Source: Candidatus Poribacteria bacterium
Lineage (GTDB): Bacteria; Poribacteria; WGA-4E; WGA-3G
Direction of reading: 5' to 3'
Assembly: GCA_964291315.2 (NCBI GenBank)
Contig: OZ219752.1
Location: 32,001-96,000 of the forward strand
DNA: 64,000 nt
This document shows, piece after piece, positions 1 to 57,654 of the stretch. Position 1 is the stretch's first letter. Every line of letters starts with the position of its first letter. A model generated the notes under the pieces. That model did no database searches, had not been told where the DNA came from, and was given only the letters and a program-made list of their open reading frames with translations. The position numbers and the translations under genes were made by a program.

Positions 1-979
1 AGCTCTGCACCGAGTGGTTGACATCCGCCCACGATATCTCCCCAGCACTATAGGCATCTCTCAAGCCGCACAACCGCCGCCGTGCACGTCTCACCGAAGA
101 CGGGCGGAGCCGACGATGCGTCGGGAAAACCTGATACCCCAAAAAATCTGTCCCCGCTTTCACCGGAAACACTTGGCACTTGTGCTTATGGAGCTTCAAC
201 CGCAGCTGAGACAGGTAGGCGGCCATCTCCGCTTTTACCCAATGGAGCCGCGCCTTGTCTCTATCAAGCACCACAAAATCGTCTACATAACGGATATAGT
301 AGCGACACTTCAAGTCTTCTTTGACAAAATGGTCGAACCCGTTGAGATGGATATTCGCGAAAAACTGGCTCGTCAAGTTACCGATCGGGATGCCGCGGTT
401 TCTATGGAGCGAGGTCAGCAGATCATCGCCTTCAAAGTATTCACGCACCGGCTCTTGCGGGTTGCTCCGGTCGACAATCAGATCCATCAACGCTAACACT
501 TTTGGGTCCCGGATCTTTCGGCGGAAGCGCGACTTGAGGATGCCGTGGTCAATAGAGGGAAAATACTTCTTGATGTCGCACTTCAGCACATACGTATTCT
601 TACGACTGAACGCAGTGAACCGGTCCACCGCCTTATGCGTTCCCTTGCCCTTTCGGCAGGCATAGGTATCGAAGATGAACGTCCGGTCGAAGAGCGGCTC
701 GATCACATTACACAAGGCGTGATGCACCACCCTATCACGATACGGGGCAGCACTGATCTTGCGAGGTTTCGGCTCGTAGATAGAGAACTCCCGATATTCA
801 CCGGGGCGATACGTCTGTGTTTGCAGCTCCTCTTGGAGCTGATACAGCTCTTTTTCCAAGTGGAAGTTGAAGCGGGCGATGTCCGCCCGAAAACGTTTGC
901 CACGTTGCGCCTTCTGAGCCGCCTCGTAGAGGTTCAGATAAGAGCAGATTTTTTCAAAGAGTCGGTTGTGCGTTTTCAT
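1..979 (-). CDS. DGR-type reverse transcriptase (3' end beyond the window)
   Basis: Manual translation from ATG at 979: [29 protein letters not shown]...[19 protein letters not shown]...[12 protein letters not shown]...[14 protein letters not shown]...[17 protein letters not shown]...[11 protein letters not shown] (YVDD at 278-289)...DFLGY...[14 protein letters not shown]. The frame is open to the window edge and the start overlaps the avd stop (ATGA). Confidence 0.95.
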
Positions 980-1323
980 GATGCAGTAGATTGGCTGCGT
1001 ATCCAGCCTCCTATCAGTTTGCCGACTTCATTGACCTCTTGAGAGATGTAGGCATACTGTTTTGTAGAGAGGAGATTGAAGTCATGAGATAAACGGATGA
1101 GATACCGGAGTTTCTCCAACTGCACGTTGGCTCTCTGAAGTAAATGTAACCGTTTTCGCGTATAGGTGGCTTCGATGAGCACGTCGAGGGTGTCCAAGGC
1201 GAGAGTGATGGTTCTATCGCCGAGGGTGAACTTTTGGGAGCGCGGAAATCTTTCGACGCGTCCGAGGAGCCACATAATCACATCGTAGAGTTTAGGGACG
1301 GCTTGAACTGTGGAAGCTGGCAT
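976..1323 (-). CDS. avd: Accessory variability determinant (Avd/bAvd-like four-helix bundle)
   Basis: 115 aa basic helical protein with [12 protein letters not shown]...[13 protein letters not shown]...EVGKLIGGW, immediately upstream of the RT. Confidence 0.9.
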
Positions 1324-1380: not shown

Positions 1381-1405
1381 CCCACGCCTGCATAGCAGGC
1401 GTGGG
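1381..1405. other. Perfect hairpin/cruciform downstream of the VR (candidate DGR homing element)
   Basis: CCCACGCCTGC-ATA-GCAGGCGTGGG: 11-bp stem and 3-nt loop, 25 nt after the target stop codon. Confidence 0.8.
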
Positions 1406-1430: not shown

Positions 1431-2822
1431 TCAGGGCGATACAGACCTCGCACAACGAAAACCGAGGAAGCTGTTCGCGCCCGCCGGCGAATAGCCGTTG
1501 CGGTAGGCGACCCGCACGGACTGAGCCGTAGCGCGCCAGGAGCCGCCACGCTCCACGCGGGATGACTTTATTTGTGTATAGTTATCTAATATCAGGTCTA
1601 CATTGGATAGCGTGTTCACGTCTGACAACGGATTGCGAGAAGGCGAACTAAAATAGTAGTCCTTGTTATACGCATCCAGACACCACTCCCAGACATTCCC
1701 CGCCATATCATACAGACCATACCCATTCGCAGCATACGCACCCACTGCCGTCGTATCATTGACATTTCCGCCGTAGTTCGCCTGTGTGCTGCTAATCGTG
1801 TTTCCCCACGGATACTTTAGCCCCGACTTGCCGCCGCGTGCAGCTTTCTCCCACTCCGCCTCCGTCGGCAGCCGTTTGCCCTTCCATTTCGCATACCCCA
1901 CCGCAGCATACCAACTCACATACACCACGGGATGGTTCGCCTTGCCCGCAGGATAGTTGTTGTCATCATCCCAACGAGATAGGTAGGTTCCATTGTGCAA
2001 GTTGTCCGGAATACGGCTCTTCTGCCACTGCGGGTTCGCCAACACAAAACGCTTGAAGTCCAAATTCGTCACTTCATGCATGTCCATATAAAACGCATCC
2101 ACGTAGACAGTATGAACGGGCTGCTCATCCGTGCCAGATTCCGCATCGTTGCTGCCCATCTGAAACTCACCCGCAGGGATCAATACCATGCCCTCGGGCG
2201 GAGGTGGATCCGGCGGAGTGACAATAGGCACAGTAGTGGTAGTAGGGGTAGTAGTAGGGGGAGGCGTACCATCAGAACCACCACCATTGCCAGCAACAGG
2301 CGGATCCACAACAGTGCCAGTGTCCGGCGCCTCCGGCACTGCAGATACCCAACTAGACGTGATAGTCACTACAGAACGACCCGGATACTTCATAAAACCA
2401 TCCTCGCGAACAAAACCAGCACGAGGACGATTCACATAACTCAAATCAGACAACTTCACAGCCGCACTCAGCTCATCCGAGACTATCATAAACGAACGAA
2501 GCGGATGAATCCAAAAATCAAACGTCAACGTGCCACTCTTCGGTTTTATCGCCTCACCCGAACGCGAGATATGGAAGTAGATGCTGTTATCTGACCACGA
2601 ATAAAACTTACGCGTCTCACCCGGCGACAGACGATAATACCCGCGCGTCCGAAACCCGCTCGGAATGCCCGCCTTCGCAGGCCGCCACGTCGAATGGATC
2701 ACATACAAACTCTCATTGGTCTGATTCGTTACAGGGTTCGCCTTCCATTGCGCCGCTGCTAACTGAGCAACCGAAAACATCAGCACCGCAACAGTTAACA
2801 GAACAAACATTGTCCTTCTCAT
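1431..2822 (-). CDS. Secreted DGR target protein: signal peptide, N-terminal beta domain (DUF1036-like, tentative), Pro/Thr linker, FGE-sulfatase/CLec-fold domain
   Basis: Motifs MVLIPAGEFQMG, HPVVYVSW, RLPTEAEWEKAARGG, NGYGLYDMAGNVWEWC and RGGSW...GFRCAR. Confidence 0.92.
   Translation of the reverse strand: MRRTMFVLLTVAVLMFSVAQLAAAQWKANPVTNQTNESLYVIHSTWRPAKAGIPSGFRTRGYYRLSPGETRKFYSWSDNSIYFHISRSGEAIKPKSGTLTFDFWIHPLRSFMIVSDELSAAVKLSDLSYVNRPRAGFVREDGFMKYPGRSVVTITSSWVSAVPEAPDTGTVVDPPVAGNGGGSDGTPPPTTTPTTTTVPIVTPPDPPPPEGMVLIPAGEFQMGSNDAESGTDEQPVHTVYVDAFYMDMHEVTNLDFKRFVLANPQWQKSRIPDNLHNGTYLSRWDDDNNYPAGKANHPVVYVSWYAAVGYAKWKGKRLPTEAEWEKAARGGKSGLKYPWGNTISSTQANYGGNVNDTTAVGAYAANGYGLYDMAGNVWEWCLDAYNKDYYFSSPSRNPLSDVNTLSNVDLILDNYTQIKSSRVERGGSWRATAQSVRVAYRNGYSPAGANSFLGFRCARSVSP
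1446..1560 (-). other. Putative DGR variable region (VR) and IMH
   Basis: C-terminal RGGSW...GFRC segment whose variable codons (CGC GCT, TCC, TAC, AAC GGC TAT, GGC, AAC AGC TTC) end in C/T, as expected for codons derived from AAC/AAT. Confidence 0.75.
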
Positions 2823-2857: not shown

Positions 2858-2971
2858 GCACAACCTAACAGGGTAGGCTACAAGTAAATCCTTTGTGTGC
2901 TTGTAGCATAGACTGACAGTCTGTGCCTCTTTTTAATATGATACAATGCACAACCTAATAGGTTATGCTAC
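2858..2971. repeat. Three 24-bp GTAG-type REP-like imperfect palindromes
   Basis: 2858-2881 (-), 2903-2926 (+, GTAGCATAGACTGACAGTCTGTGC) and 2948-2971 (-, GTAGCATAACCTATTAGGTTGTGC), spaced 45 bp apart. Confidence 0.7.
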
Positions 2972-2977
2972 AGCTGA

Positions 2978-3541
2978 TTACTTCACTATTAACATTTTAC
3001 GCGTCGCACGGAAAGAACCCGCCTCAAGCGTATAGAAATAGACACCGCTCGAAACCCGCTCGCCCGAATCGTTGCGACCGTCCCAATACACCGACCGAGA
3101 CTTGCTACGGTAAACACCGGGCACCTGATGCCCTAAGCCCAACGTCCGTACCAGGCTGCCATCCGTTGAATAGATGGATACACTGACCTCAGCAGCCTCG
3201 GACAGCTCATACGGAATCCACGTCTCTGGGTTGAACGGGTTCGGGTAGTTCGGCAGCAATGCTGATTGCCGCGGTGCCGCTATGTTTTTCTCAGACAGCA
3301 AACGCGCACTCCTTTCCAATGCGGCTTGTCTGGCGCGCACAACGGCGGGCTCCGATTCGCCCGGTTCAGTCGGCATCGCATCGGGTTCAATGATAAGCCG
3401 CAGGTCTACTTCTACTTGCAGTGTAGCCGAGGGGTTCTCAGCGGGCGATTGTGCCTTGCTCCAGGCGTGCAGGGCGTAGCCGCAGGCGCCGATAGCGAGC
3501 AGGGCAATCATCAGTTTCGGGATTGTCACATACGTTTTCAT
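2978..3541 (-). CDS. Secreted protein with FlgD Ig-like/T9SS-type C-terminal domain
   Basis: LLPNYPNPFNPETWIPY...YWDGRNDSGERVSSGVYFYTL. Start moved to MKTYV (3541), which follows an AAGGAG RBS. Confidence 0.8.
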   Translation of the reverse strand: MKTYVTIPKLMIALLAIGACGYALHAWSKAQSPAENPSATLQVEVDLRLIIEPDAMPTEPGESEPAVVRARQAALERSARLLSEKNIAAPRQSALLPNYPNPFNPETWIPYELSEAAEVSVSIYSTDGSLVRTLGLGHQVPGVYRSKSRSVYWDGRNDSGERVSSGVYFYTLEAGSFRATRKMLIVK

Positions 3542-3751
3542 CGGAAAATACTCCTTTTTTGTATAGGCAGGGATGTTTGTCTGACTCAATTGCGGATGAC
3601 CGCAGATGTCCTGAAGCTCCCTGCCAGTAGCGGCATCAGGACAATACGTTTTGGTGCCCCCGGGTGAGGCGGATATAATCACATCCAACCGACATATCTA
3701 ATACCCGCTACATTCCCACTTGTATGGGCATGTTTTTTTATTCTCTTGGAA

Positions 3752-52330: not shown

Positions 52331-54394
52331 CTATTGTAGCAGCTGCACAAGCTCCTCGACATCCGTGGTTGGCGCTTGACAGACGTAATTCTCACAGACA
52401 TACGCCGTTGCAGTGTCGTTAATTTGGGTCCTACCAGCGAGGAGCGGTAGTGTTTGCCCATCAGCAGACTCACTCAAGGCGACGATTTTGTTCGGTTGAT
52501 AGATGCTGTGCACCGCCGCTAACATAGATTCCGTTCTGACATCGCCTCTTTTGCCAACAATCACAACCTCTTTCGGTGTGGACAGTAGGAAGGCTAGCTC
52601 ACAGAGGAGTTGACCTGATCCGGATGGCATCCCTTCTATCTGATGGCAGTAAAGTCGCAGTGTCTCAACGGCTTTGTCGTGGAATTCAGGGGCATCAAGA
52701 TGTTTGGCTAGTCGCAGTAGACTGTGGATCGCCATGGACGCGCCAGAAGGCGCAGCACCGTCATAAGCAGATTTCGATTGGACGATGAGCGTTTCGTGCG
52801 CTTTACCGGTGGAGAAGAAGCCTGCACCCGTGTCGTCTTCGAACTGTTCGATCATAAGGGACGCAAGACGCTCGGCTTCCGTGAGCCATCTAGGTTCAAA
52901 ACTGGCTTCGTAGAGTGCGATCAACCCGGCAATGAAATAGGAGTAGTCTTCAAGATATGCGTTAAGGTGGCTCTTGCCATCACGATAGGTGCGTAAGAGC
53001 AGCCCACTGTCTTGGGTGAGCGTCGTCAAGACGAATTCAGCAGATTTTTCGCATGCTTCAAGGTATGCAAGCTTCCCTGTCAGTTGGTATCCGATCGCCA
53101 TACCGCGAATCATAAGACCGTTCCAACTGGTTAGGACTTTGTCGTCCAACCCGGGTTTAATCCGTTTTTCTCTCTCCTCAAATAGTTTTTGTTTTCCATT
53201 TGCAAGGAGAGCTTCCAGTTCTGCAACATCCATACGCAGCTTTCGAGCAAAAACATCAGGTGCGGTTTGGATGTGAAGGATGTTTTCTCCTTCAAAGTTG
53301 CCTTGTGGCGTGATGTCGTAATACTCACAGAAGATTTCGGCATTTTCTTCTCCGATGATGGCTTCCACGTCGTTTGGTTCCCAGACGAAGAATTTACCCT
53401 CTACACCTTCGCTATCGGCATCTTGGGTGGAATAGAACCCCCCGTTTTCAGCGTCGTACATCTCACGAAGGACATAATCAAGCGTTTCCACGGCTATGTC
53501 CCGGTAGAAGGGCTTTTGGGTGGCTTGATACGCTTCAAAATAAGCAACGACGAGTTGGGCATTGTCGTAGAGCATCTTCTCGAAGTGTGGAACCAGCCAA
53601 TGGGCGTCGGTAGAGTATCGGTGGAAACCGCCGCCGATTTGGTCATACAGGCCCCCACGTGCCATCTTCTCCAATGTTAGCTCTACCATCTCCAAGGCGT
53701 TCGGGTTGCCACTATGGTGCCAATAGCGAAGTAGGAAAGGCAATCCCATACTAGGCGGGAATTTCGGAGCATTACCGAATCCGCCGTGCTGCGCATCGAA
53801 TTGAGACCTGTAGTTTTGAAACGCCTGAGTCATGAGTTCTTCAGTAAGCTCATGGGAGTGTGGATCGGCAACGTTGCTTATCTGCGCGAGACGTGTTGTG
53901 ATTTGCTCCGCTTGCTGCAGCACTTGTGTTTTCTGACCGCTGAACGCCTCTGCCACAGCGTGCATCACTTTCGGAAATCCGGGTCTGCCATATCGATCGG
54001 CCGGCGGATAATAGGTTCCGCCGTAGAAAGGTTTAAGATCCGGAGTGAGGAAAACAGTCATGGGCCAGCCACCTTGACGTGCCATCATCTGGACCGCATT
54101 CATGTAGATTTCATCTAAATCCGGACGTTCTTCTCTGTCTACCTTGATGTTGACGAAAAGTTTGTTCATGACCGCAGCGATCTCTTCGTTTTCAAAGGAT
54201 TCACGTTCCATGACGTGGCACCAATGGCATGCAGAGTAGCCGATACTCAAGAGGATCGGTTTTTGCTCCTGCTGGGCGCGTGCCAAGGCTTCCTCGCCCC
54301 ACGGATACCAATCCACCGGGTTGTGCGCATGCTGGAGTAGATAGGGGCTTGTTTCATGGATAAGTCGGTTCGTGTGTTTTGGGGTGTCGTGCAT
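52331..54394 (-). CDS. Thioredoxin domain-containing protein, YyaL/SSP411 family
   Basis: [28 protein letters not shown] and [11 protein letters not shown] motifs. Confidence 0.93.
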
Positions 54395-54472
54395 CAGTTT
54401 TTCTCCAGCATTATAAGGGTGAGGTTGACGTTATTATAAAGTATCCGGATCCTCTAAATCAGATAAATCAGA

Positions 54473-54544
54473 TACCGCTACGGGGATTCGAACCCCGGTT
54501 TGGTGGCTGAGAACCACCCGTCCTAACCCCTAGACGATAGCGGC
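54473..54544 (-). tRNA. tRNA-Glu(CTC)
   Basis: GCCGCTA...GGTGG-TTCTCAG-CCACC...GGTTCGAATCC...TAGCGGTA; CCA not encoded. Confidence 0.93.
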
Positions 54545-54566
54545 ACATTGATATAACAGAAAAAAA

Positions 54567-54637
54567 CTGCCCGAGAAGGACTCGAACCTTCACTACGTGG
54601 TCCAGAGCCACGCGTCCTACCATTAGACGATCGGGCA
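54567..54637 (-). tRNA. tRNA-Gln(CTG)
   Basis: TGCCCGA...CGTGG-CTCTGGA-CCACG...GGTTCGAGTCC...TCGGGCAG; CCA not encoded. Confidence 0.93.
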
Positions 54638-54658
54638 TCTATACCTGCTGCTCCTTTA

Positions 54659-54687
54659 AGTATACCTTAAACACGAAGGCTTGTCAA
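54659..54687 (-). promoter_or_regulatory. sigma70 promoter of the tRNA pair
   Basis: TTGACA-17 bp-TATACT, about 20 nt upstream of tRNA-Gln. Confidence 0.8.
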
Positions 54688-54720
54688 TCTTTTCACTCGT
54701 CTGAATTCTGCGACTCAGAC

Positions 54721-55995
54721 TCAGCGGGATACGGGCTTCACACAACGGAACCCGACGCCAGAGGTCATGTAACCTGGCGACGTACCAGTGTAGCGATAGC
54801 TGACCCGCAATTGTCTTACTTCTGCGCCCCACCCGCCGCCGCGGAAGATGCGCTGAGACACAATATCTGTATAGTTATCTAATAACCACCTGATACTGGG
54901 TGCACCCGATAGAGGGTTATAGGTAGGAGAAACCGAATAGAAGTCGTATATCGCCTCATCCAAACACCATTCAGCGACATTCCCCGCCATATCATACAGA
55001 CGATACCCATTCGCCGCATAACTCCCTACCGGTGTCTTGTAACCGACATTATTGCCGTAGTTCGCACGCGTCCTGTCAATCGTGTCGCCCCAAGGATAAT
55101 CGCGTCCCGATAGTCCGCCGCGGGCGGCATATTCCCACTCCGCCTCGGTAGGGAGTCGCTTGCCTGCCCATCTGGCGTATGCCATCGCACCATACCAACT
55201 CACATAACCAACTGGATGGTCCGCATATCCAGCCTTCACACGATACACACCGTCTACTAACTCAATGACCCCTCTGCCGATATCCAAATAGGTCCTCAAA
55301 TAGGTCTTGCCGGCATCGACATGTTTACCAATGGCATTCAAAAACGCAGCGTATTTGGCATTCGTTACCTCGTGTATATCCATGTAAAATGAATCTACGT
55401 AGACAGTATGGACGGGCTGCTCACCCGGATAAGAATCTGCATCGTTCCTGCCCATCTCAAACTCGCCCGCAGGAATTAATACCATGCCTGCAGGAGCCGA
55501 CAGAGGACCACCCACACGCACCCAAGCTGAAGTGACCGACACTTTAGAACCGCCCGAATGCTTCATAAAACCTGTCTTCTGAACCAACGCCTTCCGAGAA
55601 CCGCTCACATAACTCAAATCAGACGACCTCACAGAGGCACCTATCTTATCAGATGCTATCGTAAACGAATAATACGGATTAACCCAAAAGTCAAACGTAG
55701 ACGTGCTCCTCTCCGGTTTTATCGCTACACCCGAACGCGAGATACGGAAATAGATGCTGTTATCTGACCACGCATAAAACTTTCGCGTTTCACCCGGCAA
55801 CAGACGATAATACCCGCGCGTCCGAAACCCGCTCGGAATATCGTCCTTTGCAGGCCGCCATGTCGAATGAATCACATACAAATGCTTATTTGTCTTGTTG
55901 GTCATAAGGGTCGCTTTCCATTGTGCCTCTGCTAACTGAGCAACTGCAAACATAAGCATGGCAAGAATGGATAGGGCGAATACACTTCTGCGCAT
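54721..55995 (-). CDS. Secreted FGE-sulfatase/CLec-fold protein, paralog of the DGR target
   Basis: Shares LYVIHSTWRPAK...IPSGFRTRGYYRL.PGETRKFY.WSDNSIYF and the FGE-domain motifs with 1431-2822, but lacks the Pro/Thr linker. Confidence 0.9.
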   Translation of the reverse strand: MRRSVFALSILAMLMFAVAQLAEAQWKATLMTNKTNKHLYVIHSTWRPAKDDIPSGFRTRGYYRLLPGETRKFYAWSDNSIYFRISRSGVAIKPERSTSTFDFWVNPYYSFTIASDKIGASVRSSDLSYVSGSRKALVQKTGFMKHSGGSKVSVTSAWVRVGGPLSAPAGMVLIPAGEFEMGRNDADSYPGEQPVHTVYVDSFYMDIHEVTNAKYAAFLNAIGKHVDAGKTYLRTYLDIGRGVIELVDGVYRVKAGYADHPVGYVSWYGAMAYARWAGKRLPTEAEWEYAARGGLSGRDYPWGDTIDRTRANYGNNVGYKTPVGSYAANGYRLYDMAGNVAEWCLDEAIYDFYSVSPTYNPLSGAPSIRWLLDNYTDIVSQRIFRGGGWGAEVRQLRVSYRYTGTSPGYMTSGVGFRCVKPVSR

Positions 55996-56087
55996 TTTAG
56001 ATCTCCTTTTTGTTTTCTAGGTTATGTTACGGCACACAACACATGCCTATTCCCTTTCACACCTAATTTATTATCAATACTTTGCGG

Positions 56088-56145
56088 GTCACACCGCACG
56101 AGACTTGCTACGGTAGCCCCCCTGTGCCTGATGTTCCCACATCAA
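56088..56145 (-). pseudogene. Short remnant of an FlgD/T9SS-like domain gene
   Basis: Reads HQAQGGYRSKSRAV* versus HQVPGVYRSKSRSVYW in 2978-3541; shares TACCGTAGCAAGTCTCG. Confidence 0.55.
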
Positions 56146-56154
56146 CTTAAATGC

Positions 56155-57654
56155 CTACTGCATCGGTATGACCGAGACCGAGATATTGGAGAGCGTATAG
56201 AAGATATTAATGAACCCGATGAGGATTGTTGGAATAACAAAAATGCTCAAGAGAGCAAAGGTGCCGGTGGAAAAGGAGGGGCGCGGGGTTTCCTCACCAG
56301 AATCTTCAAGATACATCGCTTTCACAATCCGAGCGTAATAATAGAGCGAAACAACACTATTGATCAGACCGATAAATGCCAGCCAGTAATACCCTTGTTC
56401 CAGAACAGCAGCAAAGAGGAGCCATTTTCCGAAGAAGCCGGCAAAGGGCGGGATACCCGTTAGTGAAAACAGGAAAATCGCCATTGCTCCGGCGACTAAC
56501 GGCGCACGTGAGGCGAGCCCGCGATACCCTTCAATCATCTCGCTACCTTCCTCATTCGCAATGAGGACCACCACATAAAAAGCTCCTAAGTTCATAAAGA
56601 GATAAACAATGAGGTAGAAGAGGATCGCCCCAACCCCCTCAGATGTGAGCAAAACGCCCCCCATCAATAGATACCCACCGTGGGCGATGCTTGAATATGC
56701 CAATAGACGTTTCACGTTCTGTTGAGGGAGCGCCGCGAGGTTTCCGACGCTCATCGTCAGAGCGGAGACGATCGCTAACATGAGCGTCCAGTCAACGGAT
56801 TGCATGACTTCAGAACTACTGAATCCCGAATAGAAGAACCTAATGAACAAGGCAAATCCAGCGGATTTTGAGGCAACCGATAAGAACGCGGTTATCGGGA
56901 TAGGTGCCCCCTCGTAAACATCAGGAGACCACATGTGGAAAGGCACGGAAGCTATCTTATAGCCGACACCGGCGAGGATGAAAATTATTGCAATTAAGAG
57001 AGCTAGCGGATACACTTCGCCTGTTGCCAACAATTCAGTGAGATTTGCGCTAATTTGTACAAGATCCCCAGTGCCTGTCAGACCGAACAAAAGAGAAAGT
57101 CCGAACAGCATCGTCCCAGAGGCAACCGCACCGTAGGTGATGTACTTGAATGCGGCTTCGCTTGAACGCGGGCTATGTGTCAGAAACCCAGCGAGAATGT
57201 AGGAGGTCAAACTCACAGTTTCCAACGAAATGAATATCATCAGCAGGTTGGTTGAAGATGTCATCAAGAACATTCCGAGGGTGATCGCTAACAAGAGTGC
57301 GTAGTACTCGCCCTTCAACCGGCCATCGAGTTCATCGGAACGAAAAGAAAAAAGAATGGTTGCGGCGGTCGCCATCAACAATAGGATCTTAAAAAATGTA
57401 GAAAAAACATCGAGCCGAATCATCCCTAAAAAGAGGGAGACAGATTTTTCTTCACCCAGTTGGGCGTGCGTGACAAGAACTGCGATGAACACACAGCCGA
57501 TACCTACGAGCGAGATATAGGCAACTGCGGCACTCTCTCTGTTTTTCACACCGAGATCGATGAGAACAACGGCGATGGCAAAAAGGACTAACAAGAGTTC
57601 TGGACTGAAATAGAGAAGGCTTTCGATATTGCTTAAAGGTTGCATACCTGACAA
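56155..57654 (-). CDS. nuoN: NADH-quinone oxidoreductase subunit N
   Basis: EAAFKY, VPFHMWSPDVYEGAP, KRLLAYSSIAH and GIPPFAGFFGK motifs. Confidence 0.95.
   Translation of the reverse strand: MSGMQPLSNIESLLYFSPELLLVLFAIAVVLIDLGVKNRESAAVAYISLVGIGCVFIAVLVTHAQLGEEKSVSLFLGMIRLDVFSTFFKILLLMATAATILFSFRSDELDGRLKGEYYALLLAITLGMFLMTSSTNLLMIFISLETVSLTSYILAGFLTHSPRSSEAAFKYITYGAVASGTMLFGLSLLFGLTGTGDLVQISANLTELLATGEVYPLALLIAIIFILAGVGYKIASVPFHMWSPDVYEGAPIPITAFLSVASKSAGFALFIRFFYSGFSSSEVMQSVDWTLMLAIVSALTMSVGNLAALPQQNVKRLLAYSSIAHGGYLLMGGVLLTSEGVGAILFYLIVYLFMNLGAFYVVVLIANEEGSEMIEGYRGLASRAPLVAGAMAIFLFSLTGIPPFAGFFGKWLLFAAVLEQGYYWLAFIGLINSVVSLYYYARIVKAMYLEDSGEETPRPSFSTGTFALLSIFVIPTILIGFINIFYTLSNISVSVIPMQ

Follow-up and report, generated by a model that had tools for sequence, protein, structure and literature searches.

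A predicted exported paralog of a diversity-generating retroelement target, inserted between nuoN and tRNA-Gln in a Candidatus Poribacteria genome, is not a current target of the retroelement

The stretch of DNA analysed here (the window) spans 64,000 nucleotides of a sponge-symbiont-type genome and corresponds to positions 32001-96000 of contig C3 (G000:C3:32001-96000) in a Candidatus Poribacteria assembly of 4.40 Mb, 4 contigs and an estimated completeness of 95.2%; the homologs recovered likewise carried the source name Candidatus Poribacteria. The gene under study, T2, is an intact open reading frame (ORF) of 424 codons at 54721-55995(-), taken from the ORF list and preceded by an AAGGAG sequence resembling a ribosome-binding site. 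At the other end of the window, 52 kb from T2, lies the cassette of a diversity-generating retroelement (DGR) with its target gene, T1 (1431-2822(-)), to which T2 is related.

The DGR cassette is arranged on the minus strand in the order T1, avd and reverse transcriptase (RT). T1 encodes a variable protein of Pfam family PF03781 with the core of its variable region (VR) at 1452-1550, and a GC-rich hairpin with an 11-bp stem and a 3-nt loop follows 3′ of the VR (1381-1405(-)). The accessory gene avd (976-1323(-)) matched Pfam bAvd (PF22296) with an E-value of 2.2e-21, and the RT gene (2-979(-)), which runs off the window, matched RVT_1 (PF00078) with an E-value of 1.9e-21. The template repeat of this cassette, TR1, lies downstream of the RT gene and only just beyond the edge of the window (C3:31730-31851(-)); it encodes RGGSWNNTAQNVRVANRNNNTPTNTNNNNGFRC. 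A second cassette is present on contig C4, where the RT is near-identical (phmmer E-values of 1.2e-226 and 1.5e-227 for the two), Avd is encoded by a 99% identical gene and the target, D2T, lies at C4:493319-494707. The whole genome contains two RVT_1 genes, two avd genes and one type of template repeat (TR). Among 64 other genomes of the genus, five have the same DGR; their RTs show 81-83% identity, and all five TRs are 82-97% identical to TR1 over 119 nt. A cognate RT, avd and TR are therefore present in the genome, but the presence of the DGR alone does not make T2 its target.

The N-terminus of T2 has a basic start, a hydrophobic core and an A-x-A site, and a Sec signal peptide is predicted, as read from the sequence, at aa 1-24 (MRRSVFALSILAMLMFAVAQLAEA, followed by QW; 55924-55995(-)), by way of which the protein would be exported. 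A helix was placed at aa 2-22 in a low-confidence full-length AlphaFold2 model (17-sequence alignment; mean pLDDT 50), which was otherwise discarded for claims about fold. The signal peptide is followed by an N-domain (aa 25-165; 55501-55923(-)) that is restricted to the genus and without a Pfam family, a hmmscan search of two N-domains against Pfam at E ≤ 10 having returned 0 families. Modelled separately with AlphaFold2 from a 31-sequence alignment, this domain was all-beta with a mean pLDDT of 95. A Foldseek search of the N-domain model against the PDB gave no match at E ≤ 0.001, and the best VIA-align Z score against the PDB was 6.3, a generic value shared by the PepT2 extracellular domain, the VHL beta domain, CBM20/25/41 and cytolysin membrane-binding domains. 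As this score lies below the level at which the tool is trusted, the N-domain is called a beta-sandwich and nothing more specific. The identification of the N-domain as DUF1036, suggested by an ESM Atlas score of 0.79 (below the 0.9 level), was rejected, Pfam being empty at E ≤ 10.

The remainder of T2 is made up of an FGE-sulfatase domain with the C-type-lectin fold (aa 169-420; 54736-55491(-)), which matched PF03781 with an E-value of 1.3e-60 and a score of 205.6 bits (cut-off 23.3) over profile positions 3-255 of 255. This Pfam family is common to T2 and the formylglycine-generating enzyme (FGE; SUMF1; 6muj/2q17, 1y1e), and a sequence search of the PDB returned the enzymes 6muj and 2q17 with E-values of ∼1e-36. 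In these alignments, the enzyme sequence RGGSYLCHDSYCNRYRV faces RGGGW---GAEVRQLRV of T2, such that the LCHDSYC stretch of the enzyme stands opposite a 3-residue gap and Cys-free residues. The two cysteines of this Cys-x4-Cys stretch are presumably the catalytic pair of the enzyme. Because the pair is missing in T2, the domain is read as non-catalytic and T2 as a probable binding module rather than an enzyme. The stretch equivalent to the VR of a DGR target, hereafter the tip, lies near the C-terminus (aa 385-418, RGGGWGAEVRQLRVSYRYTGTSPGYMTSGVGFRC; 54742-54843(-)) and comprises 34 codons.

Both T1 and T2 carry a single FGE-sulfatase domain after an N-terminal part of ∼165 residues. Alignment of the two proteins by BLASTP revealed 54% identity (256/475) over the full length with an E-value of 2e-164 and 65 gap columns, which bears out the remote paralogy to the DGR target claimed in an earlier reading made from the sequence alone (the sequence-only reading). 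The long shared stretches of DNA that it had described were also found; the 39-mer quoted there occurs exactly twice in the window (2628-2666 and 55801-55839), as against none in 100 shuffles, and the longest exact runs common to T1 and T2 measured 40, 26, 22 and 20 nt. Several finer differences noted there were likewise recovered. A Pro/Thr linker is present in T1 and lacking in T2, accounting for most of the 65 gap columns; the tip of T2 has one codon more than that of T1 (34 versus 33), with GGG TGG in place of TCC TGG and GGG TTC in place of GGT TTT; and the DNA downstream of T1 folds with a z score of -4.28, whereas that downstream of T2 resembles its shuffles (z score of -0.57). Hairpins of the T1 type also follow two other VRs with 0 non-A mismatches (defined below). 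A simple scan found a hairpin at only three of nine VRs, so a downstream hairpin is not universal in this genome.

The tips of 45 FGE domains were scored by codon-wise alignment of their 99-nt cores to TR1, comprising 67 non-A and 32 A positions. Non-A mismatches numbered 0-2 in nine tips, which are the true VRs, 4-13 in 14 tips and 16-37 in the remaining 22. The nine true VRs sit on three contigs, and two of them are far from the cassettes, one being 194 kb off on C3 and the other on C1. The T1 tip differed from TR1 at none of the 67 non-A positions and at 23 A sites. The alignment of the T2 tip to TR1, a check of the kind proposed in the sequence-only reading, revealed 21 mismatches at the 67 non-A positions in addition to one extra codon, and hence a failure to match at non-A sites when compared with the 0-2 mismatches of true VRs. 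A 16-nt sequence at the 3′ end, GGTTTTCGTTGTGCGA, is identical in TR1 and seven of the nine VRs but reads GGGTTCCGTTGTGTGA in T2, with 3 mismatches; on the model of the Bordetella phage DGR, we take it to be the initiation of mutagenic homing site. When the last 170 nt of T2 were searched by BLASTN against the 4.4-Mb assembly, only the conserved flanks of other tips were returned and no match spanned the middle, nor did any TR of the five related DGRs in the genus resemble the tip. A test for the fossil trace of a DGR set T2 no apart from unrelated tips, the third base of AAY being kept at 7 of 12 sites in the T2 tip and at 2-9 of 12 in tips with at least 16 mismatches. T2 is not a current target of the DGR.

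Variation at the locus was followed in assembled contigs from two public runs of one study, X1 and X2; such contigs drop rare variants. The tip was present in contigs of X1 (5511 nt) and X2 (748 nt) with 0 differences, the latter covering 54672-55419 and being identical throughout. Depth in the bin 54766-54826, within the tip, equalled that of a single contig in each run (990 in X1 and 263.4 in X2). The proposal of the sequence-only reading that T2 is a fixed copy gains some support from this identity, which is weak evidence for fixation because contigs cannot show rare variants. In run X2, a relative ∼12 times more abundant (depth 3245 versus 263) has the same tRNA region apart from 8 differences and one deletion of 9 nt; its sequence diverges at 54693, beyond which only a 30-letter piece (54726-54755) fits. 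Joints in the read mapping that pass over the tip (54754 to 54872 and 54755 to 54957) had sides of only 21-30 letters with 85% likeness and were set aside as cross-mapping of paralogs or relatives.

To place the tip in relation to the rest of the gene, its divergence was set beside that of the domain that carries it. Scaffold (non-A) divergence of the T2 tip from TR1 was 0.31 and nucleotide divergence of the FGE core from T1 was 0.33, a ratio of 0.95. Synonymous divergence (dS) between T2 and T1, calculated with dN/dS by the Nei-Gojobori method, was likewise equivalent in the FGE core (1.23) and the tip (1.19). Across aa 1-40, the FGE core and the tip it stood at 0.92-1.23, falling to 0.25 for aa 41-95 and to 0.43 for aa 96-165. 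The low-dS patch (aa 41-165; 55501-55875(-)) has the appearance of a gene-conversion tract. Within aa 41-95, nucleotide identity to T1 reached 0.90, dN/dS was 0.17-0.25 and identity at 4-fold sites was 0.88 (n = 25), as opposed to 0.33-0.65 in other bins. In the adjoining segment (aa 96-165; window 55501-55710), dN/dS against T1 was 0.84, and selection there appears relaxed or diversifying. For the FGE core, dN/dS between T2 and T1 was 0.25 (range 0.19-0.31), which together with the intact ORF argues that T2 is functional.

Given that dS is equal in tip and core, the sharp contrast along T2 lies between the N-domain patch and the rest of the gene and not between tip and body. The description of T2 in the sequence-only reading as having a conserved body and a divergent tip thus holds in part: the N-domain is conserved and the tip is the most isolated segment when compared with all paralogs, but the FGE core has diverged from T1 as far as the tip has. 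The contrast that was described arose largely from adenine mutagenesis in T1 and from the unusually conserved N-domain patch. The nearest paralog also shifts along T2, from T1 and D2T in the N-domain to C4:1232452 where the FGE domain begins and to a cluster at C4:2727-2733 kb in mid-FGE. On account of this shift and of the low-dS patch, T2 is read as a probable mosaic: paralogs would have exchanged sequence by gene conversion, with the tip left out of the exchange.

Other tips behaved differently from that of T2. In 13 intermediate tips, the ratio of scaffold to core divergence was 0.19-0.54, and these graded tips are candidate former VRs in decay. Examples with 4-13 non-A mismatches are found at C4:2728444-2733282 (five FGE domains), C4:1231203-1232135 and C4:772904-774697. 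A further gene, C1:560248-562293, encodes two N-domains and a core that is 35% diverged from T1, yet its tip has 1 of 67 non-A mismatches (scaffold divergence 0.01 versus 0.35 for the core), apparently the result of homing in trans, the acceptor being a divergent paralog on a different contig.

T2 belongs to a large family. In the genome, 48 ORFs of at least 80 aa matched T2 and 58 matches to the FGE domain were counted. The N-domain is encoded by 27 ORFs, that of T2 matching the 26 others, and occurs in one or two copies ahead of 1-5 FGE domains. The genome-wide modular family linked to the DGR that the sequence-only reading had anticipated is thereby confirmed, with nine VR tips on three contigs. 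This genome has 47 N-domain matches. Of 36 other genomes of the genus, 12 have 1-2 matches each, and 24 genomes from other genera of the order have none; the N-domain is a species-level expansion. Of 5.8 billion protein clusters, the one that contains T2 is a singleton, and the best full-length match in another genome was 54% identical. A search for orthologs in the genomes of 40 relatives returned only FGE-domain matches of up to 62% identity. Querying shorter proteins with aa 290-424 turned up no identity above 61%; of the 120 matches listed, 11 were fetched, and their tips were unrelated to that of T2.

Phylogenies were calculated for 51 FGE cores with their tips taken out and, as a quick search, for the N-domain. 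The N-domain tree joined T2, as their sister, to 4 single-N DGR-type proteins, both DGR-adjacent targets among them (SH-aLRT 100). In the FGE-core tree, T2 was sister (UFBoot 95, SH-aLRT 76) to a 12-row DGR clade that has support of 100/100 and holds eight of the nine true VRs; the next sequence outward (91/91) was C4:1231203, labelled n4 for the 4 non-A mismatches of its tip to TR1. The comparison of trees by module, also suggested in the sequence-only reading, therefore shows agreement between the N-domain and the core on the placement of T2. In these trees T2 is the first to branch off in the DGR-target lineage, and since the two agree, no domain shuffling is required to explain its architecture.

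Comparison with relatives revealed that T2 is carried by an insertion of ∼1.45 kb (54700-56153(-)) between the nuoN stop codon and the promoter of a tRNA-Gln gene. In 20 of 20 genomes of the same genus, nuoN is followed by the tRNA promoter, and none of them has a T2-like gene at that site (tblastn, E < 1e-5). The gap was 75-89 nt in 14 of these genomes and 223-750 nt in the other 6, compared with 1517 nt here. The insertion begins just past the nuoN stop codon and ends just short of the conserved promoter, TTGACA-17-TATACT (54659-54687(-)), which matched in 11 of 12 positions in the scan and is kept after nuoN in the relatives. No convincing promoter was found by the scan for T2 itself; the tRNA promoter alone scored. 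In six of the 20 relatives (L023, L026, L027, L033, L039 and L042), the nuoN-tRNA-Gln spacer holds a different insert of 223-750 nt with a promoter-like TTTTTAAGGTATAAT of its own, and the spacer appears to be an insertion hot spot.

The origin of the inserted DNA is suggested by its 5′ flank. It contains a 43-nt remnant (56091-56133(-)) of a FlgD_ig/Por_Secre_tail gene, whose 3′ coding end it matches with 79-88% identity at sites 132-266 nt upstream of T1, D2T and other family genes. Ahead of T1, this gene is intact (2978-3688(-), 236 aa; Pfam PF13860/PF18962), and coding sequence of the same type precedes six other listed family genes at a distance of 132-266 nt. Because homologs precede T1 and these six others, the FlgD_ig/Por_Secre_tail gene and the family gene are regarded as a recurring pair, and because a remnant of the usual upstream gene sits in its 5′ flank, T2 is taken to be a family locus that was copied at the level of DNA.

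The account of T2 that we consider reasonably probable is that of an intact, exported and non-enzymatic binding protein, one that branches earliest in the DGR-target lineage and lies out of reach of the DGR. It starts from what was observed of T2, namely its paralogy to T1, its domain make-up, the lack of a TR signature, the insertion and the mosaic divergence. The tip would have been free of overwriting by template cDNA since the split from the target lineage. T2 would have arrived, in this species only, as a copy of a family locus with a scrap of the upstream gene, between nuoN and tRNA-Gln, and after the insertion its N-domain may have exchanged sequence with T1-type copies by gene conversion. 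The product would be a secreted protein that binds a ligand through a fixed tip.

Several points weigh against this account. The best paralog identity in the last 150 nt was 64-65%, compared with 70-91% in every other 150-nt window, and no database protein scored was more than 61% identical over the last 135 aa; for this isolation of the tip, ordinary divergence is not a full explanation. TR-like tips bracket T2 in the tree (C4:1231203-1232135, n4, on one side and the DGR clade on the other), which hints at a diversified ancestor, and the placement of T2 at the base of the DGR lineage in both trees leaves room for one. Export and binding are predictions from the sequence, and none of the RNA runs contained the T2 stretch. 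A completeness of 95.2% leaves room for a template on unassembled DNA, and low-level diversification could escape contigs that come from two runs of one study.

In a rival history, the tip would once have been written by the DGR and would then have escaped through loss of the template-matching 3′ end and the hairpin and transfer to a new locus, leaving a frozen specificity that subsequently drifted past recognition. This history of a retired VR, also put forward in the sequence-only reading, is possible but rather doubtful. It is favoured by the position of T2 at the base of the DGR-target lineage in both the N-domain and FGE-core trees, with a next outgroup (C4:1231203-1232135) that keeps a TR-like tip (4/67 non-A mismatches), by the frequency of TR-like tips among homologs in other genomes of the group and by the fixation of the T2 tip in two samples. 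VR retirement does occur in this genome, judging from the 13 tips at 0.19-0.54 of core divergence that look like decaying former VRs. The T2 tip, by contrast, has no residual signature, with its scaffold/core ratio of 0.95, its AAY third-base count of 7/12 inside the 2-9/12 range of tips with at least 16 mismatches and its extra codon. TR scaffolds are moreover 82-97% conserved across species, whereas T2 differs at 31% of non-A sites. As tips can be overwritten laterally, the bracketing of tip states in a tree is also weak evidence for an ancestral VR. A related and still more tentative proposal is that T2 is an end-point of the retirement of DGR products, having lost its 3′ end and hairpin, moved beside a tRNA gene and kept a hard-wired specificity. 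The genome would then document a retirement series from nine live VRs, including trans-written remote ones, through 13 part-decayed tips to detached tips such as that of T2, and the DGR would act as a generator feeding a standing repertoire of fixed binding proteins.

That T2 is still diversified by a TR/RT pair located elsewhere, the other option offered in the sequence-only reading, is very improbable. Remote VRs with 0-1 non-A mismatches do occur 194 kb off on C3 and on another contig, and the assembly is 95.2% complete and not closed. The genome nevertheless has only two near-identical RTs, two avd genes and one type of TR, and neither the assembly nor the related DGRs provide a template-like partner, the middle of the T2 tip being unmatched across the genome and the TRs of the genus mismatching it as well. 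T2 also lacks the 3′ homology and the hairpin, and its tip is the same in the contigs of two samples. Decay of T2 as a functionless duplicate, a pseudogene-to-be beside a tRNA gene, is only slightly less improbable. The insertion is specific to the species and the protein is a singleton in the database, dN/dS rises to 0.84 in aa 96-165 and the T2 stretch is in no RNA run, all of which would fit such a fate. On the other side stand the intact 424-codon ORF with its signal peptide, RBS-like AAGGAG and match to Pfam positions 3-255 of 255, the dN/dS values for the FGE core (0.19-0.31) and for aa 41-95 (0.17-0.25) and an N-domain that folds confidently in the model.

T2 is best compared with proteins already described in cyanobacteria. 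Genomes with a DGR there contain paralogs of the C-type lectin (CLec) domain both in and outside the DGR locus, with varying VR/TR homology, and the CLec module has been grafted onto other N-terminal domains; remote variable proteins (VPs) are defined as having VRs at least 50% identical to that of the DGR VP, and VP homologs as having less than 50% (Vallota-Eastman et al. 2020, PMC7517822). As far as the cases taken from that report extend, non-diversified paralogs of DGR targets are thus already known and T2 is an ordinary member of such a family. Like the cyanobacterial VP homologs, it is a dispersed DGR-target paralog with no usable TR homology. Unlike the cases drawn from the same source, it occurs in another phylum and joins the module to a secreted beta-sandwich partner instead of a kinase or orthocaspase, and the scale of 58 FGE-domain and 47 N-domain matches in one genome is large.

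The structural counterpart among DGR proteins is TvpA of Treponema denticola (PDB 2Y3C), to which the C-terminal domain of T2 was matched in the PDB search (2y3c_A, E-value of 3.7e-12, query 270-418). T1 is a true member of this class of DGR variable proteins with an FGE/C-type-lectin fold. The tip of TvpA is diversified by a DGR, whereas that of T2 fails the TR test, and T2 has an N-domain in addition. Nothing relevant emerged when the literature on Poribacteria or sponge symbionts was searched for DGRs or FGE proteins, with the proviso that the supplements of DGR surveys may list DGRs from this phylum.

Taken alone, T2 changes little, and its value is that of a negative control inside an unusually rich genome. 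At the level of the genome, the interest lies in one template type that accounts for nine tips on three contigs, in about a dozen decaying tips and in an N-domain present 47 times in one species. The graded tip series, if real, offers a way to ask how specificities made by a DGR are kept or discarded. More interesting than T2 itself are features elsewhere in the genome, namely the remote targets written in trans, the graded series of tips in decay, the chimera at the second template and the truncation of a third cassette.

In the immediate neighbourhood of T2, the insertion is followed by genes for tRNA-Gln(CTG) (54567-54637(-); Rfam RF00005, 63 bits) and tRNA-Glu(CTC) (54471-54545(-); Rfam RF00005, 57.6 bits), both identified by ARAGORN. 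A search of 54400-56300 against Rfam with an E-value threshold returned these two tRNAs and nothing else. Each of the 40 other genomes searched has an ortholog, 85-89% identical, of the DUF255/thioredoxin gene that lies downstream (52331-54394).

At the template position of the second cassette (C4:496284-496400) lies a chimera, the first half of which equals TR1 with adenines intact and the second half of which is VR-like, with 13 A-site changes and 0 non-A changes. The chimera runs in frame via a linker into an ORF with further FGE domains (C4:496292-497914) and looks like the product of TR-VR recombination or self-homing. In a relative with the same DGR (G022), the template after the RT gene (L067:4972-5087) is adenine-poor in its 5′ half. 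It has 22 A in all, where the other four TRs have 34-36, and lacks one codon by comparison, so that either natural variation of the TR or a further chimera would account for it. At C3:226369-227400 lies a third DGR cassette, which is truncated, with a target that has 0 non-A mismatches and an 8-bp variant of the hairpin; homology to avd stops there after the first ∼26 nt, and neither an RT nor a TR is present.

At C3:224128-226077, a single-N family gene ends in ...VLRGGS and a stop codon exactly at the expected start of the tip. The next ORF starts from the very next base and encodes an FGE domain that lacks the first ∼15 positions, as if the DNA had been rearranged at the boundary of the tip. 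Fifteen copies of the palindrome GCAYAACCT-N3-AGGTTRTGC are present in the genome, including those at window 2860-2960, C4:492419, C4:1232234 and C3:224026. When positions were compared by eye, ten of the 15 lay within ∼900 nt upstream of family genes, sometimes twice, and the element may be an operator or a hairpin.

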